Shown: positions 7,189 to 61,289 of the stretch, piece after piece
Layout of the letters: the number at the start of each line of letters is the position of its first letter
Numbering within the stretch: the first letter of the stretch is position 1
Assembly (NCBI RefSeq): GCF_026571515.1
Contig: NW_026857783.1
Span: 50,878-114,877 of the forward strand
Length of the DNA: 64,000 nt
From: Ruditapes philippinarum
Lineage: Eukaryota
Direction of reading: 5' to 3'
Translations under genes and position numbers: made by a program
The notes under the pieces: model-generated
What the model saw: only the letters and a program-made list of their open reading frames with translations
The model's database searches: none
What the model was told of the DNA's origin: nothing

Positions 7189-7995
7189 GACAGACAGACA
7201 GACAGACAGACGGACAGTGCACAACTAGGACTTGGTACTGATCATTCCTGTAAAGTTTGGATAAAATTGCACCAGTAGTTTTTATGAGTAGTAGGTCCGG
7301 ACAAGCTTTTTGCGTATCTGAAAAAAACACCTTTTTATCAAAGGGCCATAACTCGGCAAAAATCATTCAACCCGGAAAACCCGTGCAATATGCGCAAGGA
7401 AACTTGAGCTGATCAAATCCTGTAAAGTTTCATTGAAATTGCATGAAGTGGTATAAGAGAAGTAGTCCGGACAAACTTTAAAAATAAAAATTATTTAAAG
7501 GCCATAACTCTGACAAAAATCATTGGAACCGGAAAATGCTGACAATATGCACAACTAGACTTGGTACTGATCATTCCTGTAAAGTTTGGATGGAATTGCA
7601 CCAGTAGTTTATGAGAAGTAGTCCGGAACAAACTTTTGTGTATCTGGCAACACACAGAAAAAGAAACCTTTTAATCAAAGGCCATAACTCGGCCAAAAAA
7701 TCATTCAAACCGGAAAAACCCGTGCAATATACGGCGCAAGGACTTGAGCTACAGATCAATCCTGTCAAGTTTCATTGAAATTGCATTAGTGGTATAAGAG
7801 AAGTAGTCCCGGACAAACTTTAAAATTAAAAATTATTTAAAGGGCCATTAAAACTCTGACAAAAATCATTGAACCGGAAATGCTGACAATATGCACAACT
7901 AGACTTGGTACTGATCATTCCTGTAAAGTTTTGGATGAAATTGCAACCAGTAGTTTATGAGGAGTAGTCCGGACAAGTTTTGTGACGGACGCACG

Positions 7996-8042
<47 letters not shown>
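7189..8042. repeat. Tandem array (~340-bp unit with ~170-bp sub-repeat, 2.3 copies, 7218-7984) bracketed by (GACA)n microsatellites (7189-7217 and 7985-8042)
   Basis: Units start 'gcacaactag(g)acttggtactgatcattcctgtaaagtttgg' at 7218, 7549 and 7893. There are (gaca)7 on the left and (gaca/gacg)14 on the right. ORF 7982-8338 starts inside the microsatellite (DRQTDRQTD...). ORFs 7040-7366 and 7571-7768 are spurious. Confidence 0.85.
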
Positions 8043-8044
<2 letters not shown>

Positions 8045-8092
8045 GAAGTGATCCCTATATGTCGCCACTACTCCGTAGAGGCGACACAAAAA
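8043..8092 (+). mobile_element. Hairpin-bearing tail following the microsatellite (pearl/HINE/Helentron-type 3' region)
   Basis: 'gtgatccctatatGTCGCCactactccgtagaGGCGACacaaaaag' contains a 6-bp stem hairpin. The same architecture (tandem core, then tetranucleotide microsatellite, then hairpin tail) recurs at 25651-26138, 54151-55389 and as a solo tail at 48600-48700. Confidence 0.5.
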
Positions 8093-8094
8093 GA

Positions 8095-9420
8095 ATTTAA
8101 TAAAAAGTTTAAGAGTTTCAATGACAATGTCATAAAAAAACTGAGAGGATTAAAGCATAGTGATCCTAAATCTTATTGGAGTTTATTAAATACATATTCT
8201 TCTGATAAAAAAGTGATAATAAATAAAATAACTAATGAGGTTTTCCATGAGCATTTCAGTAATTTGAATGCAGATATTTTAAGAAATGAAAATGACGTAG
8301 ATAATTTAACAACTTACCAATGTTTAATGAGGCACTGAATTCGCAATTTACTGAGCAAGAAATAGATAAGGCTATAAAGGCGCTTAAGAATAATAAAAGT
8401 CCATCTATATTTGATAATATTCATTAATGAGTATCTCAAAAAAACTCCTGATAATCTGCTGGCTGTACTTACGCTATTTTTTTTAACATTATATAGACTC
8501 GGGTATCTTTCCGGATGTGTGGAGCAAGGGAGTTATCTTACCATTGTATAAAAATAAGGGGATATTAATGATCTGGATAATTACAGGGGCATAACAATAC
8601 TCAGTTGCTTTGGAAAACTTTTCACTTCGGTACTTAATAACAGATTAAATGACTTCTTGAAATCAAACAACATTCTATGTGAAGACCAAAGCAGGTTTTC
8701 AGGAAAGCATTATAGTACTGTTGATCACTCATATTTTCATTTAAAACTTTCTAGTGGACGTTAATCTAGCACATGGAAAAAAGTTGTATTGTACATTTTG
8801 TAGATTTATCGCAAGGCCTTTGATTCTGTTAATCGCACTGGCCATGTGGCATAAATTATTAAGTTACAAAATTGATCGGGAAAGCTTTTAAAATAATACT
8901 CAATATGTATGACAAAGCAAGTCATGTGTTAGTTCGAATAATTTACAATTTCAGATTTTTCACTAGTCATACTGGGAGTAAGACAAGGTGAAAACTTATC
9001 TCCAATATTGTTTTCTCTTTTCTTGAATGATCTAACTAATTTTTATAGTTTGATAAATATGAAGGTTTGCAGTTTCTAAAAGAACATATAAATGATAATG
9101 TTAAGTAATGATGAAATGGAAGTTTTATCTTAAACTGTATTTACTATTGTATGCGGATGACACTGTAATATTGTCAGAGAGCTCTCAGCAGCTTCAGTTA
9201 GCATTAAACGCTATGTTCTGACTACTGCAAGCTTTCGAATCTTGAAGTAAATTCAAATAAAACCAAAGTTATTTTATTTTGGAAAAACCAAGAGAGGTTT
9301 GCGTAATATGCCTAACTTTCACTATGAGGGGACTGTCCTTGAAATTGTTGAGCATTTCTCATTTTTAGGGTTCAAATTTTCATTTAATTAGTAAACTTCA
9401 GCAGAACTAAAACATTCCTT
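8095..9420 (+). pseudogene. Decayed non-LTR retrotransposon (LINE) ORF2 / reverse-transcriptase fragment
   Basis: Three-frame translation gives RT motifs broken by stops and frameshifts: 'FTEQEIDKAIKALKNNKSPS', 'YRGITILSCLGKLFTSVLNNRLNDFLKSNNILCEDQSRF', 'FVDLSQGL...', 'NLSPILFSLFLNDL', 'LYADDTVILSESSQQLQLALNAMF', 'FLGFKF'. Confidence 0.75.
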
Positions 9421-10606
9421 ATTGGATCAAGCCCGTTAAAGCAATGTTTTTCTGTAATTAGGAAATCTTAGGATACTTTTTTTTTACCAATAGATATGCA
9501 ATTACACTTTGTTTGATACAATGATAGCACCCATTTTTTTTATGGGTTGTGAAGTTTCGGGGGTGTTGAAGATGTGAGTGTTGTGGATGAATTTCAAATT
9601 TAAAATACCTAAAGGATAATTCATATGTACAGGTTAAACTTTTTCATCGATTGTTGGTGGCTTGGCTTTGTTTTCTTTTTGTCTCCAATGCTATGATTTA
9701 TGGGAGTTGGGTATTACCCCATTTCAACAACAAATTAAAAGTAGAGTTCTCAATTACTGGGGTAAATAGTTAATTCTAAACATGATAAGATAGTCAGCAT
9801 TCTATATAGAACAACTTCATAATTTATATACTCTGAAATAATATTAATCAGATTGGGGTCTGTTTTGTTCGAAATAATTTAAATAATCTTTTTTTGGATT
9901 GTCGCATTTTTGGATAAATTATCAAAATGTGGATCTCCTGCTTCATTCAAGAAATACTGTCAACTTAAGATTGCGTGATCATTTTATGCAAAATTGGAGA
10001 GTACAATTAATAATTCCTCTCAGTAAAATGTTAAATTACAGGATTTATAAAACAGGATTTTTGTTTTGAACCATACCTCAGCAAGTTAACCTATGAATTT
10101 AGCTTTAATTCTCTTTAAATTTAGAAGTCATGAATCACAAACTTCCATTGAAAAGGGAAAGGTTTATGATATTCCAAGAGAACTTAGAACTTGTAAAACA
10201 CTATGCTACCAGGTAACTCTTTTTAGGCGACCGAAATTCCATTATTCTTTTTGAATGTTCACATTTAGTCAATACAAGAAAGCTGTATCTTGAAAAAAAT
10301 GATTAACTATGAACGTCCAAGTACTTTTAAAAATTTGAAAAATTAATGAACCATAGTAATAAAGATATCCTTTTAGGAAAACTGCCATCATTTTGCAAAA
10401 TTATTAAGTTATTATTTAAATAAAGTTAGCTTTTTAGAATTATGTATTTTTTTTCTCTTTGTTTTTTTTCTCGCAATGATTTTTGATTTTTCTCTCTCAG
10501 TCCTCCATTATCAGTGGCAATTATTACAGTAATTTTATTACATCATGGAGTTGTATGACCATTTATAATTTGCCATTTTGTAGTATTTTGTTTTTACATA
10601 TTATTT

Positions 10607-13158
10607 CACGCCCGTTTAACTCACAACGAGTGAAAAATGTCCATCGGTTAAAATGTTGTGAGCAACTGCCGTTCCTCGTTGTGAGCACCCATCTTTGACG
10701 TGTGACACGATAAACAAGGTGAGTTTTTCATATTTTTTTAAGATTACAGACATTTATATAAAATATCGGAATGCAGTTAGCTAGCGATGTGTTTTTCGAG
10801 TATGCACATGTAAAGATATTGCCTGTTGGTCGACAATTTGATGGAAATATCGTGCGACTCAGTCACTCGGGGTAGCTGGAAAACTGGAGATATCTTCTCT
10901 CCGGACCAAATTTAACATCGAAAAACGTCGATTCTGGTGACGTTTTGTGCATTCTAACCTTAAACAGATGCCCACAAGTCTTCAGCGTAAATTATAATCT
11001 GAAAGTCTTCATAGAAACGAAGATATACCCCTTTTTGCTTTAATCCTCGTTGTAGCACCATAACCTCGTTGTGAGCAAGACAAGCGCAGTGCGTGTATGG
11101 TTTCAATATGTATTTCAGATGGTGAAAAATATAATTTTCAATCTACCAAAGCAATTTAAACGTTTTTGCACAGCAGCATTTCCTTGCAAAGACGTTGTGC
11201 ATACCCCAAAGGGAGTATTTATATTAGTTTTGAACTGTCCGTCTGTCAGTCCGTCAATCTGTCCGAAAACTAAACATTGGCCATAACTTCCTTATTAGTA
11301 AACGGATTTGATTCATATTTGAACACAACATTCCTTAGCACAAGACCTTCCTTTACGACCTGTATTTTTTACCTTGGCCCCTGAATGGCCTTACTTGAAG
11401 GTCAAATTGTCCCAAAACTTAAAAATTTGGTCATAACTTCCTTATTAGCATACGGATTCTACTCATATTTTGAAACAACACCCCTTTAGGCAAGACCTTC
11501 AAACTGATCTGTTTTTTTACCTTGTACCCTGAATGACCTTCTAGAACATCCAAAAACTTTAACATTGGTCATAACTTCTTAATAAGTAAGTGGAATTAGT
11601 TCATATTTGGACACAATGCCCCTTTGGACAAGACCTTGTTGAATTCGTGAAGTTGAAATTGTGAATTCATGAAGTTGAAATCGTGAATTCATGAAGTTGA
11701 AATCGTGAATTCATGAAGTTGGAATCGTGAATTCGTGAAGTTGAAGTCGTGAATTCATGAAGCTGAATCATGAATTCGTGAATTCCGTATTTTGAAAACG
11801 GTAATGCACGAAGTTTAAATTGTGAATTCATGAAGATGAAATAGGAAATTCATGAACTTGAAATGTCCCCACCGGTCTTTCGTAATACACACACATGTGT
11901 TTATCCTGAGCTGAAGACTGACCAAGTTATGTAAAACAAGAACTATCACGGTAAGTTGACAATGCCCCTGAAGTGCTGCTTTGTCCTTTGATTTATGGAC
12001 CAGATAGATTATTTGTTTTTGGACAATTAGATCTTCAATGTGAAGGTCATTCAAGGTCAAGGTGAAATAAATATAGGTCAGTTGGAAGGTCTTGTCCAAA
12101 GGGGCATTGTGTCCAAATATGAACTAATTCCACTTACTTATAAAGAAGTTATGACCAATGTGAATTAATTCCACTTACTTATAAAGAAGTTATGACCAAT
12201 GTTAAAGTTTTTGGATGTTCTAGAAGGTCATTCAGGGTACAAGGTAAAAAAAACCAGATCAGTTTGAAGGTCTTGCCTAAAGGGGTGTTGTTTCAAAATA
12301 TGAGTAGAATCCGTATGCTAATAAGGAAGTTATGACCAATTTTTAAGTTTTGGGACAATTTGACCTTCAAGGTAAAGGCCATTCAGGGGCCAAGGTAAAA
12401 AAATACAGGTCCGTAGGAAGGTCTTGTGCTAAGGGATGTTGTGTTCAAATATGAATCAAATCCGTTTACTAATAAGGAAGTTATGGCCAATGTTTAGTTT
12501 TTCGGACAGATTGACGGACTTACAGACGGACAGTTCAAAACTAATATGCCTCCCTTTGGGGTATGCACAACGTCTTGCAAGAAAACGCTGCTGTGCAAAA
12601 ACGTTTAAATTGCTTTGGTAGATTGAAAATTATATTTTCACCATCTGAATTACATATTGAAACCATACACGCACTGCGCTTGTCTTGCTCACAACGAGGT
12701 TATGGTGCTCACAACGAGGATTAAAGCAAAAAGGGGTATATCTTCGTTTCTATGAAGACTTTCAGATTATAAGTTACGCTGAAGACTTGTGGGCATCTGT
12801 TTTAGGTTAGAATGCACAAAACGTCACCAGAATCGACGTTTTCAATGTTAAATTAGGTCCAAAGAGAAGTTGTCTCCAGTTTTCCAGCTACCTCGAGTGA
12901 CTGCGTCGCACGGTATTTCCATCAAATTGTCCACCAACAGGCAATATCTTTACATGTGCATACTCGGAAAACACATCGCTAGCTAACTGCATTCCGATAT
13001 TTTTATATAAATGTCTGTAATCTTAAAAAATTATAAAAAAACTCACGTTGTTTATCGTGTCACACGTCAAAGATGGGTGCTCACAACGAGGAACGGAAGT
13101 TGCTCACAACATTTTAACCGATGGACATTTTTCACTCGTTGTGAGTAAAACGGGCGTG
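10607..13158. mobile_element. Large foldback (FB-like) element: ~1.03/1.07-kb inverted arms (10607-11637; 12088-13158) around a 450-bp spacer holding a 22-bp minisatellite
   Basis: The arms are near-identical reverse complements from 'cacgcccgtttaactcacaacgagtgaaaaatgtccatcgg' to its rc 'ccgatggacatttttcactcgttgtgagtaaaacgggcgtg'. Each arm has 3 copies of a ~150-bp subrepeat ('ggccataacttccttattag..'), a (gaca)-like tract and many 'ctcacaacgag' mini-palindromes. The spacer 11641-11866 is (gtgaattcatgaagttgaaatc)n with EcoRI sites. ORFs 10483-10698, 11071-11286, 11815-12099 and 12436-12621 are spurious. Confidence 0.9.
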
Positions 13159-17663: not shown

Positions 17664-19058
17664 ATGGAAGTTTTACAGCTATTCTTTTATTTTAGGTGTG
17701 TTCTCATAGTGAAAGGACTTAACAACATGCTTACTAATGAATCGTTATCAAATTACAACAATTCAGATCTAGTGTCTACTTTGATAGCAGAACAAAGTCG
17801 AATCTGCCCTTATATTGCTTTGTGTCATGCATCAAACAGCTCTTCTTTTCAATTTGATAGATCTATGAGCAAATTACCGTGCTGCAAGGCATGTTCGTGT
17901 CAGGACACTTGTGTTCAAGAAGGTTCTTGTTGCCCGGATTATTTCAATGCAGAAGGTATAGATTTTAAGGAAAACCAGACATCACATGATAATAATAAAA
18001 AACCTGTTAGTGCCAGTGCTAACACGACGTTAACACATACACAAGAATGTGTTAAAGTACAACATGGTCGAATACAAAATCAAGACGGTTACATGATGGT
18101 AGCATCATGTCCACCCAACTTTGACGACATTGAAGTAAAAAGGAAGTGTGAAATGAAGATACATCATAGCAACCCCTTCGACATAATTGACAACGTCCCA
18201 GTAACATACGAAGATCAAAGACAAACATATAAAAATCAATACTGCGGACAATGTAACTTGCAAGAAGATGTATTTCCTACATTTTGGCATGTAACGCTCG
18301 TGTGTGATATACATTACTTTTCTTTCAAGTCCATTTCCGCGGTTAATCAATTTGAATTCATAGAGGCCGTTCTATTTACAATGCCTGGGAAGTGTAACGT
18401 AGTCTTTGAGTATGAAACTACAAATATCAGCTTAAATGCAGAACTTCGACAGTGTACATACGACACAATGATCGATAACTGCATCAAAGAACATTCGAAC
18501 ACCTTTCTTCAAACAATGTGCAAGAACTATTTCTGGACTATTACGGTGCAAGTCATTTCTGAAAGAAAAATATACAAAAACTATGCATGCCTGCTCTGTA
18601 ATGAAATAAGCTTCAGGGATAGATGTACAGTAAACCAAGAACTCAAACCAGTTGTTATTCAATTTACATCTATTTTGAACATCACTCGGAAACCATCAAC
18701 TTTCGTCGATACTTCGAAAGATGAACAACATATTATCAATCGTTATTTTCCAAACACAGACGGGGAAATTCGCTGCAAAAAAGGATTCGCACATGATATT
18801 AGAAAGGTATTGAAAATAAAAAAAGTTGTATCGAGTATGTCTTTGTACCCATTGCTTTATTCAACAAACACTTTTGTTATGATTATGAAAATACCCGGAA
18901 CTCCATTAAAGTATGCTATTTTACGTGGCGTCCTGAGTCAGGCTTATTGTTTTTCTCGTTTAGGGCACACGCTTTTTATTACTTGGGGACCTTACGCCGC
19001 TTTTCATGGAATGGCACGGAAGTGTCACATTGAAGGTTCCATGATAACCACCGTATGA
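17664..19058 (+). CDS. Uninterrupted 464-codon ORF for a cysteine-rich (27 Cys) protein with N-terminal hydrophobic leader and a somatomedin-B-like motif (CCKACSCQDTCVQEGSCCPDYF). Probably a large exon or single-exon gene for a secreted/extracellular domain
   Basis: It is the longest ORF in the window, and 1.4 kb without a stop is very unlikely by chance at ~66% AT. The C-x-C-x3-C-x5-CC-x-D-Y spacing matches the SMB domain pattern, with N-glycosylation sequons and a hydrophobic C-terminal stretch. Antisense ORFs 18105-18350 and 18432-18662 are spurious. True start and possible splice exits (e.g. AAAG|GTATTG near 18806) are unresolved. Confidence 0.5.
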   Translation: MEVLQLFFYFRCVLIVKGLNNMLTNESLSNYNNSDLVSTLIAEQSRICPYIALCHASNSSSFQFDRSMSKLPCCKACSCQDTCVQEGSCCPDYFNAEGIDFKENQTSHDNNKKPVSASANTTLTHTQECVKVQHGRIQNQDGYMMVASCPPNFDDIEVKRKCEMKIHHSNPFDIIDNVPVTYEDQRQTYKNQYCGQCNLQEDVFPTFWHVTLVCDIHYFSFKSISAVNQFEFIEAVLFTMPGKCNVVFEYETTNISLNAELRQCTYDTMIDNCIKEHSNTFLQTMCKNYFWTITVQVISERKIYKNYACLLCNEISFRDRCTVNQELKPVVIQFTSILNITRKPSTFVDTSKDEQHIINRYFPNTDGEIRCKKGFAHDIRKVLKIKKVVSSMSLYPLLYSTNTFVMIMKIPGTPLKYAILRGVLSQAYCFSRLGHTLFITWGPYAAFHGMARKCHIEGSMITTV

Positions 19059-19122
19059 ACACATCTGCGGATGTTTCTAAATTTAAAATTTTACTATTTC
19101 ATGTTTAAATGTTGAATTCTGC

Positions 19123-19262
19123 TTAAGCCGCTGCTAGGGGGCGTGGACGGTAACTTGCACTTTCCAGTACCGTCCATGAACAGGCTCAATCAAACCGAGC
19201 CTGCAACATTTTCAATTTTGCCGTGTTGGGCTTTCTTTAGGGATTCTGTATTTATCTATTTT
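19123..19262 (-). mobile_element. Second full copy of the hairpin + CTAG interspersed repeat
   Basis: About 95% identical to 4309-4437, with a few extra 5' bases ('gcttaagccgctg') shared with the rc copy at 46700-46712. Confidence 0.6.
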
Positions 19263-22083
19263 ATTAAAGAAAGTGCAACGACTGCGTGTGCACACGTGAT
19301 ACTCTACGTAAATGCATGATTTTGTCTCTGCTAATGTATACGTGCGTGCGTACTACTTTTTATGCATGCAAGAATATAGTTCATTTCATGACTTAGAAAA
19401 ATCATATATAGAAAATTATTCTTTTAATGTAATAATGCAATATTTTTTATCATTTTTCTTGTCTCATATACAACATTTTACAATAATTCTAATGGTATAC
19501 CAAAACAGTATACACTGTTGGGCTTTTCAAATTACTGATTATCCCATTAAACTATTATGATTACTGGTATATACCTTAGATGCATTGTTTTTAATGTAAC
19601 AAAATGCTAATAGGCCTGTTTTCCGACTTTCCAAACGCGATTCAAAACAATAAACGGACATTTACTTCAACATTTTACCCGTTCCTGTTAAATAAAGAGG
19701 TCATGATACACATTTGTCTTTTCAATACTAAGTTTATTTGACGGCACCTCGGCCATTATAAGTGATAAAGTTGTTTGTCTACTACTCCATTTCTATTCAG
19801 TATAGTACTCAACAATATATAATAACAGCAGTAAGCAGTCAATGGTATATTAGGTATTATGCATTTTTTAAAACTTATTCCAATTAGTTTGGGAACTTTG
19901 AACCTCTACGTAAACAAATCTTGTTAAAACACCGACACAGCAAATAACAACAAAAAAAACAAACATTGTATCATAGATGAAACTGATCAACGTTTACGGT
20001 AAACACGTAACCTATTGATCATGCATAAAATGCAAGTCTTATTCTTATAGATTAAGCGTCATTGAAATTGATAAAATGTAATATTAAGCTAGCATTAGTG
20101 TAATGGTTGGGTTATATATTTATCCACAACTGACTTTTTAATTGTAGGATGTATGCCGACAACTTTTCATAATTTTTCTTCTTTTCAAGATAGTATATGA
20201 CACTTTTTTTCAAGTATTGGGAAATTTCACCATCCAATTTAAATTGTTAATTTTCAGTGCCACTACCCCTTTTGCACATTTGTAAGGAATTATTTTTGGA
20301 TATGAAATAATTTTGTTTCTGGTAGAAATTACCTATGTTTTTGCTTTTATTTGGGGCCGATACTATTTTAAAAAAGTGATTTTAAGTAACAAGTGACCAT
20401 TTTTCTTTACATCTTTTGTCATCTTGAAAAACAAATCCATGCGCATAAAAGAGGCCCCCTTTTCACAGGCTCAAAAATGGCACATCTTTTCTAACAACTA
20501 AAACAATTTTTTAAATGTAGGTAATCTAATAAGACTTAAATCAAAAGCATCTTCAGATATATTGCAAATAGTCTTGTAAAGTGTCAAAAATAGAAACCAA
20601 GAAGAACTTTCTCCATTAGTAAAAGGTCAGAAATTATGTCATAAATTGCATAAAACGTTAATCTATAGTATATAATAATAATATGCATGAGATTTTATAA
20701 ATATTTTTGTGTGAAACGCACTGTATTTGAAGACAATTTAATGAAAGTGTATAAAACTATATATTCTGGTGCCAGTTGTGAAAAAACTTTTGAGTTTTGA
20801 AAAAGGATACAAATATGAAAGAAATTAGTCAATATATTTTGGATGGTAAAAAATCTTCCATAAATAGCAAAATAATACTTTATTATGGAATATTTTAATA
20901 TGTTTGTATACAATAAACTATATGTGTTTTATGACACAGACATTTTTTCTAAGAACTCGTTTTAGAAACTACTGCAAGATTATTGAAACATCATAATTTG
21001 AATGTAAAAATATTTCATTAGGTAAAGCTTATTTATTGTACCAATTAAATAAAATAAAAATAATAAACCTCTCAATTATTTGATTCAATATTGATATCAA
21101 AGTTTAACCCGTCAAATATATGTAAAAAGCTGAATATCAATGAAAGCAAAGTTATTTACTAGATTCTGTCAAATATGATACTAATGTCGTTGAAAAAAGT
21201 ACTCACTGTGGCATATAATGGAAAAAAGACGTTTAAAAATGTCTAGCTTGTCATCAAATTAAAAGAAAGAAAGGCAGTGTTTAACATTGTCCTAAATTTA
21301 TTTATCGGTTGTTTTTATATATTTTTTTCTTTTCTTATCTTGAATTCTGAAATACTATACCCATAAGATATGTAAAATTATATTTTACTTCAAGGCAATA
21401 AGGTATGCTATAAAAGACATTTCATACCACATTAGAAATTTCTTCCTTACCTAGATACACAATCCAAATCAATAAAAACATTGTGCGTCCTACTGCAATA
21501 ACATTGCCATCATATGTGTAATAATGTGTTCCGATTATACACGATTTCTCTTTGTTCCTATTACAGATTGTAAAAGTAAATAAAATTATTCAAAATATCT
21601 TAAACATTTAAGTTAATAACGTATAAAGTTAATCAGGAAGAGATATGCAAGGTTGGCGTAAATGATATCTGTAAAATCATAAATACTAGTAAAATGTGTG
21701 CGTTATTCAAAACGTGATATAAATTTTGATTAAGATTGTAAATTCAATTCTTATTTAGCTTTTTGAAGAGATCTTGAATACTCGTTTATCATTGACATAA
21801 CTGATAAGGGCGATAAATCATGCATCGGAAGAGCATTTCAAAAAAGATCAAGTTGGACTGTGGGAGAGATTCAGAATAAATATAATTCAGAAACTAATTA
21901 AGCAGTGTTATCACCAATGTGGTTTATAAAACACATTAAATTTTAATATGTTTTTTCTTGTTTTTTCCTTTTTTGTCATTTTTTCAGTTTTGTTTACAAA
22001 AATAGTTAATTACAACTTTTTACTTACTCCTTTCTACGAAAGCCTAATAATATCAAATAAAACAAAAAATAAAAATGCAAAGG

Positions 22084-23668
22084 AGTTATAACGCGTCTAA
22101 AGGCGTTATTATGCGAATCAAAAGGCAAAATTACGCGAAACAAAAGGTGTGATAACGCGAAAAAAAGCGTAACAACGGGAATAAAGGCGAAGTAACACGA
22201 ATATAGGCGTTATAACGCGAATCAAAAGGCATGCTTACGCGAATCAATGCGTAATAACGCGAATAATTGCATAGTAACAAATAAAGGCGTTATAACGCAA
22301 ATCAAAATGTGTATTAATGCGAATAAAAGCGTTATATCGCGACTCAAAAGGCGTAATAACGCGAATGAAAAGGCAAAGTAACGCGAATAAAAGCGTAATT
22401 ACGCAAATAAAGGTGTAAGTATGCGAAAAAGGACGGAGTTACGCGAATAAATGAGTAGTATCGCGAATAAGGGAGTTGTAAGGCGAACCAAAAGACGCAA
22501 TAACGCAAATTAAAACGCATTATAACGCCAATTTAATACCGTATTTATACTAATCAAATGGTCCAATAACGTGAGAAAGGAAGAACAATATTGATCTGAT
22601 TTTTTTGCTCAAGATATAAACTACTGTATAATAACATAATATACATTAATAATAAATATTATTCTATTTGCACAGTAATAATGTAAACTATTTGTCATAC
22701 ACTAATGAAGACTATGTGAGATTTGTCAATATAATGTGACATGGTGACTCATGGGTCCATTAGGCTCGAAATAAATACAGTTACTCTAAATTCACATGTA
22801 TCACATCATTGATTTTACACATGTCACTATTTTATATGTGGGTCATAATTATGTTATTATCTACGGATATGTCCTGTATAATAACCTAATAACCTGTAGT
22901 ATCTTCTCATTATGTGGTTGTCGCTCCTAATACAGTTAAAGGTAATAGGCTATAGGTAAGGAATTGGAAGAAACGTTAGGTATAAGTAAGTCACATAAGG
23001 AATGAAATTGTATCTTAATTATTGAAATGGTGATAATGTTTCGGTTAATTCAGTTAAAATCATAAGTCATAGGGGCCATTGTTTTCTTTGTCTTTGTAGA
23101 AAAGTATCGACTAGTTGGCTTTGAAGAAATGTATCTAATAGTTGGGTGATAGTTAATCACTTATTTGGTAAAAGTCTTTCCTAATAAGAGATTAATAATC
23201 AGACTGTGGTATTAGGACGTATCCGTGAAGAATTGAAAATAAAACGCAAATCTTGATCAATTCACTTAGATCAGCATTGTTCTTTCTTTTTTACATTACC
23301 AGGCAACTTATAATAATTTATATGGTATTGAATAAGTGTTATAACGCCTTTCGTTTTGCGTTATTTCGCATTATTTCGGTTCGCGTTATAACGATTTTAT
23401 GTTCGCGTTATAACGGCTTTGGTTTCGTGTTATAACGCCTTTTAATTCGCGTTATAGCGTCTTTTTTTTTTGCGTTATTTAGCCTTTTGATTCGCGTAAG
23501 TACGCCTTTCGATCAACGTTATAACGCTTTTGTATGCGTTATAACGCGTTAATACACCTTTTGATGCACGTTATTACGCTTTTTTGGTTCTCGTTAATAC
23601 ACCTTTTTTGCGTAACTACACCTTACGCCCTTATTTCGCGTTATTACTCCTATTTGCGTTATAACGTC
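22084..23668. repeat. Foldback-like structure: two inverted arrays of a ~15-bp minisatellite (22084-22540 forward; 23337-23668 reverse) around an ~800-bp spacer
   Basis: The forward arm is (aaaggcgttataacgcgaatc)n-like. The reverse arm is 'gcgttataacgcctttcgttttgcgttatttcgc...'. ORFs 23253-23435 and 23534-23941 are translations of the repeat. Confidence 0.85.
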
Positions 23669-23972
23669 ATGTGTCCTTTATACTTCATCCTTGCCGACGG
23701 GATATGTGTACCGCTATTCGCAAAACTACATAATGTGCATTACCTTATTTTACTGCAGGCAGATGTTGTATCTGCGTCGGGGAATTTCCACGACGAAGAA
23801 ATAGAAGTTGCTCTTCTAACAAGTGGGCTTGATAATATATTAAGTGAACAATTAGGTGATGCACTTTTAAAGTTCTCTATTTGGAAGGACGAGAATTCGC
23901 CTTTGAAGCGCCAGTTTTTTTGTAGTTATTACTGTAGCTGAAAATTGTGATAATGGAAGTTTTATAAACATT

Positions 23973-26865: not shown

Positions 26866-27027
26866 GCGTCCGCGAAGTCTGATCAGAATCCATGCCGTTC
26901 GCTTACAAACCCTATTACAAGTAGAGAAACTGATGGCGAACAGCATGGATCCTGATCAGACTGCGCGGATGCGTTGGCTGGGCACCCATTATGTTGGTTT
27001 TGTCATGGCGCGGCTCATATGTCGTAA
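26866..27027. mobile_element. Hairpin-MITE family copy (left arm truncated)
   Basis: Right arm '...ggatcctgatcagactgcgcggatgcgttggctgggcacccattatgttggttttgtcatggcgcggctca' is complete. ORF 26786-27049 is spurious. Confidence 0.75.
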
Positions 27028-29714: not shown

Positions 29715-29931
29715 TGAGCTGCGTCATGACAAAACCAACATAGTGCGTTTGCGACCAGCATGGATCCAGACAAGCCTGCGCATCCACGCAGTCCGATCAG
29801 GATCCAAGCTGTTCGCTATCAGTCTCTCTACATGTAATGGGGTTGGTAAACGAACAGCATGGATCTTGATCAGACTGCGGGATCCATGCTGGTCGCAAAC
29901 GCACTATGTTGGTTTTGTCGTGACGCGGCTG
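29715..29931. mobile_element. Hairpin MITE, complete copy
   Basis: 'tgagctgcgtcatgacaaaaccaacatagtgcgtttgcgaccagcatggatccagac...' folds back on its rc '...ggatccatgctggtcgcaaacgcactatgttggttttgtcgtgacgcggctga', with arms ~100 bp. Both flanks read 'gaaatg'. ORF 29743-29967 is spurious. Confidence 0.85.
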
Positions 29932-30154: not shown

Positions 30155-30675
30155 TCTCCAGTACTGTGGCATAGAGGTGACATTGTCAATTTTATTTTAT
30201 CTCGTGGCCACGACTTATTATCTTGAGGCCTCAAGATATTATATCGTGACCACGACTTATTATCTCATGGCCACGACTTATTATCTCAAAATATTATCTC
30301 GTGGCCACGAGTTACTATCTTGTGGCCACGAGATAGTAAGTCGTGGTCACAAGATAATAAGTCGTGGCCACAATATAATAAGTCATGGCTACGAGATAAT
30401 TATGTCGTGGCCACGAGATAATAAGTCGTGGCCATAAGATAATAACTCGTGGCCACGAGATAATATCTTGAGGCCACAAGATAATAAGTCGTGGCCTCAA
30501 GATAATTACTCGTGGCCACAAGATAATAAGTCGTGGCCACGAGATAATAACTCGTGGCCACTAGATTATAAGTCGTGGCCACGAGATAATATCTGGAGGC
30601 CACAAGATAATAAGTCGTGGCCACGAGATAAAATATAACTGCAAATGTCACCTCTATGCCACCGTACTCCAGGGG
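30155..30675. mobile_element. Palindromic-minisatellite foldback/MITE: ~30-bp TIRs around a self-complementary array of 22-bp units
   Basis: TIRs are 'tctccagtactgtggcatagaggtgacatt' and 'aatgtcacctctatgccaccgtactccagg'. Inside, (tcgtggccacgacttattatc)n switches to its rc (gtcgtggccacgagataataa)n at a symmetry centre near 30335-30345, so the whole ~520 bp is one long hairpin. ORFs 30177-30693 on both strands (LVATTYYLVA..) are spurious. Confidence 0.85.
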
Positions 30676-43864: not shown

Positions 43865-44110
43865 AAAGGATGTTTAAGCTCAGTCGGTAAAGCCTCGAAA
43901 CGGCTTTCCGAGGGCCCCGGGTTTGAGTCTCGGTCTCGGTCAGGGAACGTGTTACATTATCGCGTTTTCCGGTAAGGCCAACATTTTTTTATTAAATGTT
44001 TTACGGGACATTTTTTTAAAAAATTGGGTCGGGGGGGGGGGGTAAAATAAAAATAAAATTCAATATTTTGATCAGTCGACCACAAAATAAAAATAAAATG
44101 ACAAATGAGG
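43865..44110 (+). mobile_element. tRNA-derived SINE-like element with A/B-box-like head, A/T-rich body and (G)12 tract
   Basis: 'aagctcagtcggtaaagc' resembles the tRNA D-arm/box A and 'gggtttgagtctcgg' the T-arm/box B. The body recurs inverted at 45730-45880 and 48990-49060. It is not a tRNA gene (no cloverleaf). Confidence 0.55.
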
Positions 44111-45729: not shown

Positions 45730-48700
45730 GTGGGTAAGAGAGGTCGGCGGACAAAATGAAAATAAAAGTTCTTAAATGAACTTTTATTTTTATTTGATTT
45801 TCTCTAAAAATACGGTCGGCGGTCCCGTAAAACATTTTATAAAAAAATGTTGGCCTTATTTATGGGGAGAGAGGTAGGTGATTTTTATTCAGGTCCATAC
45901 TACAAGTAGTTTAGTTCCTAAAAGATGTTTTGTGCTTTACTTGTAAGCAATATGATCCGGTTTTTAGTCATATATTTCTTCAGAATCTGCACTGCAGATT
46001 TATCTCTATATTGTCTCATAAAACTGCAGATTATACAGTTTGAAAATTTGAATCGAGAGACCAATGCATTTTCTCCCATTCCAACAATATCTAAGCATGA
46101 CTAGAAAAAGTAAATCTACAAAACGTTAGTCCTTTGTGTTTAGAAACATTAATTTAATTAAACAACCAGTTTAACCTATTTTCCTGTTCGTCAAATGCGT
46201 TAGAAAAAATAAACAATGTTACAGTATAGACCAAGCGACTTTGATCCAATTTTGTTACAGTATATACCCAGATTTCGGTTACAGATTAGATACTTGCCAA
46301 ATTTCAAACAAAGTTCGTGTATCCATTATTTTTATGAAATAAACCATACTTTTCCAATTAATATATTCTTAAAATGTTGTATCACATTTGTTCTTCAGCA
46401 GAAAAGTTATAGTTTGCTATTTACCTTACTTAAAGTACTTATATTCAGATTTAGACTTTTTGCAGAATAAGTAATGTCCTAAGGACAACAACAGTAACGT
46501 TTATCAAATTGTATAGAGAGAAGAAATGTTATTGCTTCATTCCATTACACATTATAATAATGCTTATTAGTAATAAAATAGCGAGAAAAAAAGAATCCTT
46601 AACATGCAGAAGTCCAACATGGAAAACATGAAAATATTACAGGCTCAATTTGATTAAACCTGTTCATGGACGGTAGTGGTAACTGCAAGCTATCGTCCAC
46701 GACTCAGAGCACCGGCTTAAGCCTAGGTCACAAATAAGAAAATGCCGCCGGGCGGCGTCTGTTTCTCCAAAAAATCATAATATCGGCCAGCGTCCGTCCG
46801 GCGGCAGTGACTATCGGACGGCAACAACTGAAAATTTTGCTCATCGGGCGGGCGCCTTCGAGTTTTAAGTAATACTTAAAAGCTAACGGCGGCCGGACGA
46901 CAATTTTTGGGTCACTGAGTATAAAATATTATCGAGCGGACATCGCTCGGTCGCCGGGCGGCGACCGGGCGATGATTTTTTGATCGGGCGATTTTTTGTT
47001 CTACTAAAACACCGTCCGATTTAAAAGGCGTCCGGGCGGACATCGGCCGGGCTCCGCCCGGTGCCTGAATAGTGACAAGTAGTCAAACTATTATCGCTCG
47101 GTACCTGGACGATTCATGTACAGGCACCGGGCGGTCATCGTTTTGTCATCCGGCGACCGGGCTGCTTGTGTTTGTTGTAATTTCAGCTTGAAGAAGTTGT
47201 AATTGCCTCAAAATATATTTGTGAATTTCTTTTGAATACTAGTAAACATGAATTTTTTCTTCAATGTCCATGCGAATGTCTGATTGATTTTTGCCTTCTA
47301 CTTGCCGTTGGTGACTCGGTGTCAACAACACGGACCATCGCCTTGGCCTTCCCCTTGGCTTTGGCAGCTGACTTCTTTGCTGGCATAATTACAACTGGCT
47401 GATTTATAAAGGATGTCGTCATTGTCGCCCGGCGCCCGCGAGACAACCGTCCGATTCACTTTTAAATCGCACAGGCGCCGTACGGACATCGCCCGATCCG
47501 TTCAATTCTTTCTGGCAAAAAAATCGCCCGACGACTGTTTCATTCATGACCACGCAAGGTATCAGATTTAAAATCGCTTTGCGTCCACGACATCAAAAAA
47601 TCTGCCGATTTTATAAAAATCGTTTAATCGGACGGCGCCCGTTTTATTTGTGACCTAGGCATAAAGCAGAATTCACATTGGTAAACTTTAGATTTTTGAA
47701 CATATGTGGATGTGTTTATATGACGGTTATCATGGAACCTTTAATGTGACACGTTATTGCAATTCCATTTCAGGTTAAAATTGCGTGTGCCCTTAACGAG
47801 AATACATTGGGTGAAACTAAATAAATTGGAGTTTGTGAAGTATGCATACCACAGGTAAGCTGTCAAAAGACACAATTAAAAAGCAGGCAACTAAGGGTGA
47901 TTAAACAGTATTCAAGTGAGAAATACTGCAACCTTAAAACTTATTTTAAGTTGGAATGAATTTCCATCTACAATAATGTATTTTGTAAGTAAAGGGTTTG
48001 TTACTTTTGGTTTTCTTGGATTTTAAGTTTCAACGACACGGAGGTCATGTGAAAACATTCCGTCTTCAGTGTAAAGAAAGACCCCAGATACCCCTTCGTA
48101 AAACATTTCAGACACGAGCGGGTACAAGACTAGAACCACCGATCTTCCGTAAACTAGCTTGATAGATTCATCCAACGTCATGACGGGATTTTAATCACAG
48201 CAGTAAAGGAAAGCTGATTTGAAGTCGACGATTTTATCTCGGCTCTGTCACTATTATTTACCTCCACCAGGCTATATGGAAAAGATATTGTAATTGTCTG
48301 ACCTTATTTTTTACTCTATATCTTTCAATATTATTTTCTTTTTCAGAGACATGAAAACTTCTATACAGGATGTCTGAAATAAAAAAAATAATAAAAAAAT
48401 GACAAAATAATCTTCACTTCAACAAAGAAGCATTCGAAATGACGCAAGGGTCATGGTTTGTTTTGAATGCTTTTTGGTTCGAGATGAGGAGTTTTAACAA
48501 CATTGTCTTTTTAAAATCTATATTTTGGGTTTTCGTATCCCAGATTGCAACAGAAACCATTTGAACAACTTTGGTAGAAATTCATGTAAATTTCATAAAA
48601 TTTAGTCAAGTAGTTACTGAGCGGATGAGATTGGACAGACATGTGTTCGACAGACGGACGAATAGGCATCTGGCAAATAATCTCACCAGTTGAGTTTCTA

Positions 48701-49060
48701 GAGATTTAAAAGTTCATACATTTTACTTAGCATATATTTAGTAAATATCGAGGTCTAAGCTGTAACCGAAATCTGGTAATATACTGTAACAACATCGGAT
48801 AAAAGTCGCTAGGTCTAAGCTGTTATAGAACCAATATAAAGATGAATCTGCGTGGCAGGTTCTAAGGAAACATATGACAAGATACCGGATCCTGTTCCTA
48901 ACGAGCGAAGCACAAAAATCTTTTAGAAACTAAACTACTTGTAGTATGGACCGGAATAAAAATCACCTACCTGTCTTCCCCACAAATAATGCTCCGTCTT
49001 GAAAATTGTATACTGTAACCCGAAAGCGCGATACTGTAACACGTTCCCTACGGTGAGGAT
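45730..49060. repeat. Large inverted-repeat structure: arms ~45730-46300 and ~48744-49060 in mirrored block order, flanking ~2.4 kb that contains the GC-rich TIR element
   Basis: The left arm has blocks SINE-tail (45730-45880), X (45850-45930) and Y (46215-46300). The right arm has Y' (48744-48830, 'ctgtaaccgaaatctggtaatatactgtaaca'), X' (48890-48975, 'aaactacttgtagtatggacc') and SINE-part' (48990-49060). The order is reversed, as expected for TIRs or two inverted copies of a ~570-bp element. Confidence 0.55.
46722..47659. mobile_element. ~940-bp GC-rich TIR element (TIR 'cctaggtcacaaataa..' / '..ttatttgtgacctagg') packed with (c)cgggcgg / tcggacgg motifs
   Basis: The termini are reverse complements over ~18-25 bp and further out ('gcttaagcctaggtcac' vs rc 'gctttatgcctaggtcac'). 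Internal GC is far above the genome background. The minus ORF 47261-47446 (lysine-rich 'PAKKSAAKAKGKAKA') is short and unsupported. Confidence 0.7.
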
Positions 49061-49149: not shown

Positions 49150-49525
49150 ATGAAACAGAAATGTATGTCTCTACAAGTAATATTCCTGCTAAACACAGAT
49201 CCGCTCTGGCTAAATTCAGATGCGGTGTTGCGCCTATACGTTTAGAAACGGGGCGATATGAAAATATGTCTGTTAATGCTAGACTGTCCTATTTGTAAAA
49301 ATGCAGTTGAAACGGAAAACCATGTCTTATTAGAATGTTCTACATATGAAACAATAAGAAGGAGTTTATATGAAGAAGCTGTTAAAATTAATCATAACTT
49401 TCACGGATGGAATGATGATCACAAATTTGAATTTGTTCTATCTTATCACGATATTGTAAGAGAAAGTGTCAAAGCCTGTTTCTCAATATTAAATATGAGA
49501 TCGAACCTTCTGTACAGTTAGTTTT
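49150..49525 (+). pseudogene. LINE (CR1/L2-like) ORF2 C-terminal fragment, frameshifted
   Basis: 'RSALAKFRCGVAPIRLETGRYENMS' then, after a +1 shift, 'CPICKNAVETENHVLLECSTYETIRRSLY', the conserved C..C..E.E.H.LL.C..Y...R tail also seen at 27411-27761 (-) and 51579-51788 (-). Confidence 0.75.
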
Positions 49526-49689
49526 TATAATAGACAGTTACTTTTAATTGTACAGGTATATTTGCTTGGTTTTTTAACATGTTATTTTTTGTATTTTATA
49601 ATTTTTGCTCTTTTTAAGCCAATGGCCAAGTAATATCTGATGATACCCATGTACCCTGAAACATTCGTGTTCTTCAGTAATCATATCCT

Positions 49690-50445
49690 ATACATTCATT
49701 TTCTTACTTAGTCACGCCCCTTACAATTATTTTCATGGTCATGCCATGTAGATCTATTTTTCTTACTTTTCATAGACTGTACATCCATATTCTTACACGG
49801 TCACCTTCTTTACAAAGATGTACTTGGTCACGTCCTGTACATCTATGTTCTTACTTGTAATATCCTATACATTTATGTTCTTACATTGCCACGTCCCTTA
49901 CAAACATGCGCTTGGTCACGTCCTGTACATATATATTCTTACCTGTAATGTCCTATACATTTATGTTCTTACATGGCCACGTCCCTTACAAACATGTACT
50001 TGGTCACGTCCTGTACATCTATGTTCTTACTTGTAATATCCTATACATTTATGTTCTTACATTGCCATGTCCCTTACAAACATGCGCTTGGTCACGTCCT
50101 GTACATCTATGTTCTTACTTGTAATATCCAATACATTTATGTTCTTACATTGCCATGTCCCTTACAAACATGCGCTTGGTCACGTCCTGTACATCTATGT
50201 TCTTACTTGTAATATCCTATACATTTATGTTCTTACATTGCCATGTCCCTTACAAACATGCGCTTGGTCACGTCAAGTACATTTATATTCTTACTTGTAA
50301 TATCCAATACATTTATGTTCTTACATGGTCACGTCTCTTACAAGCATGTACTTGGTCACGTCCTGTACACATATATATTCTAACCTGTAATGTCCTATAC
50401 ATTTATGTTCTTACAGGGTCACGACTCTTAAAAACATATAATATA
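49690..50445. repeat. 88-bp satellite (~8.5 copies), with an extra diverged ~1.3 copies at 51950-52065
   Basis: Unit 'cacgtcccttacaaacatg[ct][ga]cttggtcacgtcctgtacatctatgttcttacttgtaatatcctatacatttatgttcttacattgc'. ORFs 49818-50592, five overlapping, are spurious. Confidence 0.9.
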
Positions 50446-51039
50446 TTCATACTTAATTTTTGTCTCATTCGTATATACATTTTTATACATATTTACACAT
50501 ATTCACATAAAATCTGCATACGACCATTCTATTTAAGAATTTCAAGAGACATTATATCAATGATAAACATATTCAAGACCTATTACAGTTAGACTAAAAT
50601 CAAATAGTTAAATTACAATGTATTTAAACAAAATATTAAAAGTAAGGTAACCATCGCTAATCGAAAAATGAAAACTGCTAAGAAATTGAAAATTGTAAAT
50701 CGGAGCCCTAACGCGCCTATAAAAACGTTTTAAAAGATCGATTATCATCCAAGATAAGATCTTGCATGGCCTGATTAGCGAGGATTACCTTAACCTTGGT
50801 AAAATACATTATCATGTTTAAAGCAAATATAATGGCATTATTTACAAGAGAATAAAAGACGACGTTGTAGAATGTTAAAACATGTTTTGGCACAATAACG
50901 TATCATTTCAGTTTTAGTGAACAGAAAAATTAATTGTTCATTTTTAGACATTTGTACAAATACATTATCTACCGTTTTGGCTTCATCAAATAATGATTTT
51001 CGCAAGTCATCGTACACAAAGCAATCAAGAATGACATTA

Positions 51040-61082: not shown

Positions 61083-61289
61083 TGAGCCGCGTCATGACAA
61101 AACCAACATAGTGTGTTTGCGACCAGCATGGATCCAGACCAGCCTGCGCATCCGCGCAGTCTGATCAGGATCCATGCTGTTCGCTATCATTTTCTACTTG
61201 TAAAAGGGTTAATAAGCGAACAGCATGGATTCTGATGGGATCCATGCTGGTCACAACGCACTATGTTTGTTTTGTCGTGACGCGGCTCA
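61083..61289. mobile_element. Hairpin MITE, complete copy
   Basis: 'tgagccgcgtcatgacaaaaccaacatagtgtgtttgcgaccagcatggatccagaccagcctgcgcatccgcgcagtctgatcaggatccatgctgttcgc' plus its rc arm, ending 'cgtgacgcggctca'. Same family as 29715-29931. Confidence 0.85.

Follow-up and report, generated by a model that had tools for sequence, protein, structure and literature searches.

The window analysed here is a stretch of 64,000 nucleotides (64 kb) of Ruditapes philippinarum DNA (contig NW_026857783.1, positions 50,878 to 114,877), and all coordinates are counted from its first letter. At 46720-47661 it carries a GC-rich element of 942 bp that is a discrete cut-and-paste insertion at a TTA in an older interspersed repeat. 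We consider it very likely that this element is a non-autonomous, internally deleted copy, resembling a miniature inverted-repeat transposable element (MITE), of a PIF/Harbinger transposon of the HARBI1-like clade, and that its arrays of a CG-containing motif would act as docking sites for proteins. Taken separately, its nature as a class II, non-autonomous element is close to certain and its assignment to PIF/Harbinger is highly probable. The HARBI1-like clade is common in marine invertebrates, and the element is a new family member of a well-known kind, ordinary selfish DNA.

Boundaries and termini of the element

The element boundaries were obtained from an empty site. Both flanks belong to a repeat of about 260 bp, called H below, of which self-BLAST of the flanks together with local alignment recovered an uninterrupted, 78% identical paralogue at 19006-19266. 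On the left, 46571-46720 matches 19266-19123 with 78% and 4442-4306 with 75% identity. On the right, 47683-47768 is 78% identical to 19091-19006, and in the local alignment this match reaches as far as the junction at 47665; in the paralogue it directly adjoins the left half, and the two element flanks thus lie side by side there. Since 46571-46719 and 47665-47768 are collinear with this one uninterrupted copy, the element is a discrete insertion. The junction of the empty paralogue reads GCGGC TTA AGCAGAATTC (that is, GGC TTA AGCAG) and the filled site reads CCGGC TTA-AGCCTAGG...CCTAGGCA-TAA AGCAGAATTC. Three bases have been gained besides the element, and both flanking copies fit the target TWA (W being A or T), with a different base in the middle.

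Between these flanks the element runs 5'-AGCCTAGGTCACAAATAA ... TTATTTGTGACCTAGGCA-3'. The register 46720-47661 was adopted because the same A...A terminal register is found in a sea urchin element (L124, described below) with a TTA/TTA duplication; the alternative register, TAA/TAA with GCC...GGCA termini, would require an insertion or deletion relative to the paralogue. A repeat search gave inverted arms at 46717-46737 and 47644-47664 (21 nt, 95% complementary), and the terminal inverted repeat (TIR) within them is a perfect 17-nt core. Its ends coincide with the empty-site boundaries and with a step in base composition, and it is short, as is usual for PIF/Harbinger. A preliminary description of this DNA, made from the letters alone, had proposed clean inverted termini and a transposon origin for the GC-rich block, and the TIR core, the paralogous empty site and the many elements elsewhere with the same termini (below) bear out both proposals. 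Within the window no other site matches a 16-mer of the terminus with fewer than three mismatches. The parts of the element and its insertion site are as follows.

46571-46719, plus strand: left half of the older host repeat H
46717-46719, no strand: left target-site copy, TTA, from the empty-site comparison
46720-47661, plus strand: whole non-autonomous PIF/Harbinger-type element, 942 bp
46721-46737, plus strand: left TIR, GCCTAGGTCACAAATAA, perfect 17-nt core
46738-47165, plus strand: left subterminal motif array, 15 CGGRCG cores (10 forward, 5 reverse), GC 54%, 49 CpG
47166-47410, no strand: motif-free core, GC 38%, 5 CpG
47411-47643, minus strand: right subterminal motif array, 7 CGGRCG cores (6 reverse, 1 forward), GC 49%, 28 CpG
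47644-47660, minus strand: right TIR, reverse complement of GCCTAGGTCACAAATAA, perfect 17-nt core
47662-47664, no strand: right target-site copy, TAA, with one base changed compared with both the left copy (TTA) and the empty paralogue
47665-47768, plus strand: right half of host repeat H
19006-19266, minus strand: uninterrupted H paralogue (empty site)

The element differs sharply in composition from its surroundings, with a GC content of 48.2%, 82 CpG and a CpG observed/expected ratio (o/e) of 1.51, against 32.2% and 0.89 for the whole window and 32.7% and 0.85 for 4 kb of element flanks. When CpG is plotted along the window, as had been suggested, the bin 46751-47250 has the highest count of all 500-bp bins (47, median 10). 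As single-stranded DNA the element folds at -195 kcal/mol, compared with -132 +/- 6 kcal/mol in shuffles (z = -10.8).

The element contains no open reading frame (ORF) longer than 61 aa, and no similarity to a transposase or a MADF protein was detected in it. Its motif-free core holds only a Lys/Ala-rich minus-strand ORF of 41-61 aa, which gave no significant match to anything and does not resemble the N-termini of related transposases; an exact-protein look-up of the 61-aa internal ORF returned no record. The 13 longest ORF translations (at least 45 aa), concatenated and searched against 5.8 billion proteins with the aim of catching spurious gene calls in other copies of the element, had no match, and neither an Rfam scan nor a tRNA scan gave one. 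We also considered the Lys/Ala-rich ORF (MPAKKSAAKAKGK...) as a remnant of the MADF N-terminus found in a related element (L057, MPPKQPRKVTKKGG...), and rejected this on a BLASTP E value of 2.9.

Motif arrays

Of the 33 occurrences of the hexamer CGGRCG or its complement in the whole window, 22 fall in the element and 11 in the other 63 kb. Under a first-order Markov model fitted to the composition of the element itself, 1.7 +/- 1.3 copies would be expected. The observed number, which was not attained in any of 500 simulations, is an enrichment of about 13-fold over that composition. An interior dominated by short CG motifs had been noted before; the number given then, dozens, has to be lowered to about two dozen. 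Copies aligned on the core give the extended consensus RYCGGRCGR, of about 9 bp, and many of them are part of ATCGGGCGA(T)n or of short palindromes (CCGCCGGGCGGCG, for example). Their polarity is skewed in opposite directions at the two ends, with 10 forward and 5 reverse copies on the left and 1 forward and 6 reverse on the right. No strict spacing or periodicity was seen among the copies.

Elements with the same ends

The evidence for the classification comes from elements that share these termini. A metagenome scan with the 16-mer CCTAGGTCACAAATAA listed at least 120 loci. About 81 of those listed, nearly all from the assembly JAAUYG01, are ends of one high-copy family, a MITE of about 670 bp. 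Among these listed ends, 79 of 81 have TG before CCTAGG, and TWA lies directly outside at 77 of 81 (TAA at 47, TTA at 30), with no constraint farther upstream. Internally the MITE differs from the window copy: it has other sequence, other motifs (ATCGCA, ATCGTGCA and GCAGGCA) and a CpG o/e of 1.0.

On one contig of the same assembly (L057, JAAUYG010068581.1) the shared end is followed by an ORF with a weak MADF match and by a 439-aa ORF that matches DDE_Tnp_4 (PF13359) with an E value of 4e-31. The identical transposase is encoded on a 14.8-kb NCBI contig (L123, JARPNT010002736.1), where a complete autonomous element of 5,163 bp at 4871-10033 is bounded by TGCCTAGGTCACAAATGG and TGCCTAGGTCACAAATAA; its 18 terminal nucleotides (TGCCTAGGTCACAAATAA) are all identical to the right end of the window element. 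ORF1 exon 1 of L057 alone reaches MADF with an E value of 0.005, under the cut-off, and the conceptual join of exons 1 and 2, at a splice inferred for L057/L123, gives MADF_DNA_bdg at 37.3 bits (cut-off 22; E 3.7e-9). As predicted from these sequences, the two-gene layout of DDE_Tnp_4 plus MADF is the canonical PIF/Harbinger organisation, and the system pairs an autonomous element with a short derivative. The contigs come from a different organism, since no other DNA of the window matches them. With the L057 transposase as query, 3,920 homologues were found at E <= 1e-30, the named ones being 'putative nuclease HARBI1' of bivalves (Ruditapes, Saccostrea, Mercenaria), of Lytechinus sea urchins and of amphioxus.

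Two further observations were made among these loci. On dozens of JAAUYG01 contigs the short-read assembly breaks off some 100 bp into the 670-bp MITE, which is very young and present in high copy. Three other contigs (L082, L085 and L109, JGI Ga0209365) carry a third repeat family that starts AGCCTAGGTCACAAATAAT(C/T)ACT(A/G)ATA; it has the terminal core of the window element with AG instead of TG, and its internal sequence is about 75% alike across the three contigs.

The best architectural match is L124, an element of 2,894 bp in Lytechinus variegatus (GCA_018143015.1, chromosome record CM031015.1, approximately 6,402,935-6,405,828; positions 6663-9556 of the locus). It encodes a 'putative nuclease HARBI1' (protein P0018) and has no recognisable ORF1; precomputed PF13359 and PF04827 domains mark the transposases of L124 and of the Logan contig L128. 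Its TIR is a perfect 23 nt starting GCCTAGGTCACA, its termini are AGCCTAGGTCACA...TGTGACCTAGGCA and its target duplication is a perfect TTA/TTA. The terminal 13 nt are the same as in the window element at both ends, including the A-GCC...GGC-A asymmetry (AGCCTAGGTCACA / TGCCTAGGTCACA), and both elements combine a TTA target with an AT-richer interior that lies between GC-rich subterminal domains in which a CGGNCG-type motif is repeated many times. The subterminal domains of L124 have 63% GC in a 35% GC neighbourhood and hold 14 copies of CGGCCG in 610 bp, against 0.75 +/- 0.8 expected from composition; the whole element has 15, and outside these domains a single copy occurs in 12.6 kb of the locus. 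L124 differs in that it is 2.9 kb long and codes for a DDE_Tnp_4 transposase, whereas the window copy is non-coding; its motif is CGGCCG (CCGGCCGATG) and not CGGRCG, the inner part of its TIR reads CACATAGCC and not CACAAATAA, and nothing can be aligned beyond the ends and the motifs. Related ends were found in L125 (TAC/TAC duplication, TIR AGCCCCTTTCACAA) and in L126 (TAA/TAA, TIR TAGCTCAGTCACA), and the same terminus in L128, where TAA-TGCCTAGGTCACA stands at the single end present on the contig.

Compared across these elements, the terminal 13-18 nt can be recognised as the conserved end sequence of the HARBI1-like clade, and since they match those of transposase-encoding PIF/Harbinger elements the window element is a non-autonomous member of it. 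The coding Harbinger lineage is characterised by the conserved end, by a 3-bp T-rich/A-rich target and by subterminal arrays, rich in GC, of a short CG motif, and the non-coding window element has all three. A DDE_Tnp_4 transposase is present in the elements with the same termini (L057/L123, L124, L128) but not in the window copy, and a second gene of the Myb/SANT/MADF type in the L057/L123 relative only. Transposition of PIF/Harbinger elements duplicates a 3-bp TWA target and requires, besides the DDE transposase, a Myb/MADF-like protein (bioRxiv 10.64898/2026.05.26.728016).

Several points weigh against this assignment. The flanks are TTA and TAA, so that the duplication agrees at two of three positions rather than being perfect. 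The empty site is a paralogue of 78% identity and does not represent the ancestral allele itself. Classical MITEs are usually under about 800 bp and present in many homogeneous copies, whereas the element has 942 bp and a single copy of its exact family is in view. The motifs of its relatives are different ones (CGGCCG in L124, ATCGCA and GCAGGCA in the 670-bp MITE), and binding to RYCGGRCGR is argued by analogy. As to copies, the search with the termini proposed in the preliminary description did find the same ends (A/TGCCTAGGTCACA...) on many elements elsewhere, so the lack of further copies that was to speak against a transposon was not observed. A second copy of the exact family was found neither in the window nor in the metagenome matches listed nor among called proteins, and TIR or TIR-plus-subterminal patterns gave 0 matches in contigs of prokaryote genomes and of viruses. 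The TIR string returned only unrelated primer matches in the literature.

Possible role of the motif arrays

By analogy with studied elements, the motif arrays are rather likely to be protein-binding sites. In the mechanism that we propose, the DDE transposase would recognise and cleave the conserved end sequence, and the arrays would offer multiple docking sites for the Myb/SANT/MADF-like ORF1 protein of the family, or for the transposase; the ORF1 protein would then bring the transposase to the element ends. As the window copy encodes neither protein, it could move only in trans. No PIF/Harbinger transposase gene and no autonomous partner was found in the 64 kb of the window.

The functional model is Harbinger3_DR of zebrafish, whose non-autonomous derivative Harbinger3N_DR is mobilised in trans according to passages in PMC9710019 and PMC2836001. 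Passages in the same papers, both citing Sinzelle 2008, state that its Myb-like protein binds a 9-bp subterminal motif (PMC9710019) and that the transposase is recruited by ORF1, which binds to the ends of the element (PMC2836001). Harbinger3_DR has no sequence relationship to the window element, and the mechanism suggested here is carried over by analogy. The mPing element of the mPing/Ping/Pong system of rice, a Tourist MITE with PIF/Pong partners, has a length of 430 bp. It is likewise a short PIF/Harbinger deletion derivative that uses a TTA/TAA target and takes ORF1 and transposase in trans (PMC2836001, PMC4561436), but it belongs to a plant lineage with unrelated termini, and the passages of these papers that describe it report no comparable CG-motif arrays. 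In Emigrant/Lemi1 of Arabidopsis, proteins of the autonomous partner bind the TIRs of a MITE as well as its repeated subterminal motifs (PMC1636448), although this pogo-like system is of another superfamily (Tc1/mariner-pogo, TA target).

Alternatively, the arrays could be a neutral by-product, arising by slippage or duplication of a GC-rich seed or as a degraded coding remnant, with the terminal repeats alone mattering for mobility. The absence of strict spacing would fit such an origin, as would the fact that relatives sharing the termini carry other internal motifs. We nevertheless regard it as unlikely, given the roughly 13-fold enrichment over the element's own composition and the opposite polarity at the two ends. 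A cognate array moreover occupies the same subterminal positions in the transposase-encoding L124 and is missing from its interior and flanks, and binding motifs in such positions are described in passages on Harbinger3_DR (PMC9710019) and Emigrant/Lemi1 (PMC1636448).

The terminal dozen nucleotides (GCCTAGGTCACA) are conserved across at least four sources (the window, the JAAUYG/JARPNT organism, the sea urchin and the Logan run), and the arrays vary by family (CGGRCG, CGGCCG, ATCGCA and others) while the ends stay conserved. This fits a two-key recognition, in which a conserved transposase would read the ends and a fast-evolving MADF/Myb partner the family-specific arrays; MADF proteins evolve fast (PMC9710019).

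The surrounding inverted-arm block

The element lies inside a larger block with inverted arms, which had been described as arms of about 400-570 bp at 45730-46300 and 48744-49060 enclosing a possible composite element. Inverted arms do exist there, but they are shorter and interrupted: 45853-46036 pairs with 48813-48992 (about 84%) and 46221-46290 with 48754-48823 (87%). The outer parts, 45730-45858 and 49018-49060, are not mutual inverted repeats but two adjacent pieces of one copy of a short interspersed element (SINE). The features concerned are the following.

45859-49015, no strand: 3.16-kb block with imperfect inverted arms (45853-46036 plus 46221-46290 against 48754-48992), containing repeat H and the Harbinger copy
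43866-44081: uninterrupted paralogue of the tRNA-derived SINE, with A-box and B-box-like sequences GCTCAGTCGGTAAAGC ... GGGTTTGAGTCTCGG
45742-45858 and 49019-49049: fragments of the split SINE copy, separated by the 3.16-kb block

The SINE at 43866-44081, in which ARAGORN called no tRNA, is contiguous across the block junction and reads ...ATGTTGGCCTTA-CCGGAAAACGCGATAATGTAACACG (...GGCCTTA-CCGGAAAACGCG). Since it is uninterrupted at the position of the 3.16-kb block, this block, flanked by TTA to the left and by TAA to the right, can be regarded as one insertion. Judged from these alignments, the order of nesting is the Harbinger copy within repeat H, repeat H within the inverted-arm block and the block within the SINE. 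Four levels of nesting and two paralogous empty sites in the same 64 kb offer a worked example for dating and ordering insertions.

In a composite transposon the two flanking arms are mobile elements in their own right, or ends that a transposase recognises, and the unit is found again as a whole. One could ask whether the whole block is a single mobile composite unit and the GC-rich element its passenger. The SINE copy uninterrupted exactly at its position and the 84-87% complementarity of the arms speak for such a unit. We hold it to be improbable, however, because the GC-rich element has its own empty-site paralogue in H and so inserted independently. The arms share no sequence with the element termini, which end 430 bp and 1.1 kb away from them, nor do they reach the very ends of the block, since its last 24 nt or so on the right (48993-49015) have no inverted partner on the left. 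Neither block nor arms have coding capacity or an ORF of note, and the window holds no second copy of the block. Having no coding capacity and nothing in common with the termini, the arms are not the mobilising ends of the element. The concern that its TIR-like ends might belong to the surrounding inverted duplication is settled by the same facts, and of the composite element there remains the block as one insertion, with the GC-rich element as a separate, nested insertion in H; 'composite' holds only loosely, as nested repeats.

Non-identical target-site copies

Mismatched flanks are not confined to the window copy. The window element (TTA...TAA), the 3.16-kb block (TTA...TAA) and the autonomous element of L123 (TAA...TTA) all have them, and so do 9 of 15 complete JAAUYG01 MITE copies, 8 of these 9 being TAA/TTA mixtures. 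Were TAA and TTA paired at random, about half of the copies would match, which is the outcome to be expected when short reads of a young high-copy repeat are collapsed in assembly. Flanks do match in all three copies taken from contigs of megabase scale, two of which are chromosome records. We attribute TTA/TAA in the window to a point substitution, and the JAAUYG01 and L123 mismatches are probably due to chimeric contigs.

One possibility may be that the mismatches are a signature of transposition chemistry. Gilbert et al. 2015 (PMC4561436) propose that PIF/Harbinger transposases cut inside the duplications in a staggered manner, and 3-nt donor overhangs, as in piggyBac, might then be ligated into a TWA with the other middle base. 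One flank would in that case keep the middle base of the target and the other that of the donor. We think this very unlikely to be the cause; no usable cases for judging flank mismatch emerged when the window was scanned for further TIR pairs with TWA on either side.

CpG content

The preliminary description saw in the GC-rich block a local CpG-island-like sequence that could draw methylation or serve as a regulatory or insulator-like sequence. By the criteria of Gardiner-Garden and Frommer an island has at least 200 bp, a GC content of at least 50% and a CpG o/e of at least 0.6, and in practice islands are unmethylated and associated with promoters. The left domain does fall within these compositional limits (428 bp, GC 54%, o/e 1.55 over 46722-47165), and the whole element, at 48.2%, just misses the GC threshold. 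But the excess of CpG is fully accounted for by one repeated motif, laid out as in a transposase-encoding relative, and the reading as an island, an insulator or a magnet for methylation is not supported. The island look is a by-product of the motif array and not a special regulatory island, since the repeated motif contains two CpGs. The CpGs could still be intact through a young age of the copy, or because the region may be unmethylated in the germ line.

That a host CpG island or insulator, possibly an exapted transposon, has been kept here for its CpG content is highly improbable, even with a left domain that passes the formal thresholds. Almost all the CpGs lie within the one repeated motif, and the same design recurs in the coding transposon L124 of another species. 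With a background o/e of 0.89 there is no strong CpG depletion in the window for an island to contrast with. The element sits within nested repeats and not at a recognisable gene start, and it matches no Rfam family. In annotating this AT-rich genome of invertebrate type, the block ought to be masked as a non-autonomous PIF/Harbinger copy, and its resemblance to a CpG island should not be taken for a promoter or a regulatory island.

Other transposon superfamilies

The least credible alternative is an element of another TIR superfamily, namely a piggyBac-like TTAA inserter, Tc1/mariner/pogo (TA target), hAT (8 bp) or CACTA, and we give it hardly any weight. Subterminal motif arrays are typical of hAT and CACTA elements. 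They are typical also of pogo-like MITEs (PMC1636448), and for piggyBac one can cite the left junction TTAA/GCC and the TTAA present in the empty site. The right junction, however, is ATAA or TAAA (GGC/ATAA or GGCA/TAAA) and not TTAA, and the relatives with the same termini show TWA followed by TG at 77 of the 81 ends listed, which is at odds with a TTAA or a TA register. A TA reading needs an extra base relative to the empty site and is out of register in 47 of the 81 related ends listed (TAA/TG). Only about 3 bp were added at the empty site, not the 8 of hAT, and the coding relatives carry DDE_Tnp_4 and MADF. It was the register at the empty site, together with the flanks of the relatives, that led us to reject a piggyBac, Tc1/mariner or hAT junction.

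Other repeats in the window

The remainder of the window is repeat-rich, AT-rich DNA that looks like that of an animal genome, with a tRNA-derived SINE, the probable tail of a reverse-transcriptase ORF of a long interspersed element (LINE), a satellite of 88 bp and a number of repeats resembling foldback elements. A 22-bp unit, AAAGGCGTTATAACGCGAATCA, built around the palindrome GCGTTATAACGC, forms two arrays at 22080-22560 and 23320-23670, which are inverted relative to each other, lie about 0.8-1.3 kb apart and reach a CpG o/e of 2.7; they look like another foldback-type DNA transposon with tandem subterminal repeats as its long ends. At 10619-11637 and 12086-13146 there is a nearly perfect inverted repeat with arms of about 1 kb and a spacer of about 450 bp, the arms sharing many exact segments of 20-85 nt in a hairpin- or foldback-like structure of 2.5 kb (10619-13146). 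A dense, locally CpG-rich array of a palindromic unit around TTATCTCGTGGCCACGACTTATTATCT, in both orientations, occupies about 500 bp at 30166-30662. A short element at 29728-29919 has 40-nt perfect inverted ends (GACAAAACCAACATAGTGCGTTTGCGACCAGCATGGATCC), and the GACCAGCATGGATCC core recurs as inverted pairs at 26941-26957 and 61121-61252; it therefore probably belongs to a MITE family that is present several times in the window.

An ORF at 17664-19058 encodes a cysteine-rich, single-exon protein of 464 aa, and its 3' end runs into the paralogous H repeat. An exact-protein look-up of this ORF returned no record, and its homologues are only metagenome proteins with the Pfam domain DUF8401 (PF28443), the best being 88% identical (JGI sample 3300049158). 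To the right of the inverted-arm block, the ORF at 49258-49521 presumably resembles the C-terminal tail of a LINE reverse transcriptase (CPICK...ETENHVLLEC), and it is followed at 49672-50463 by about nine copies of the 88-bp tandem repeat.

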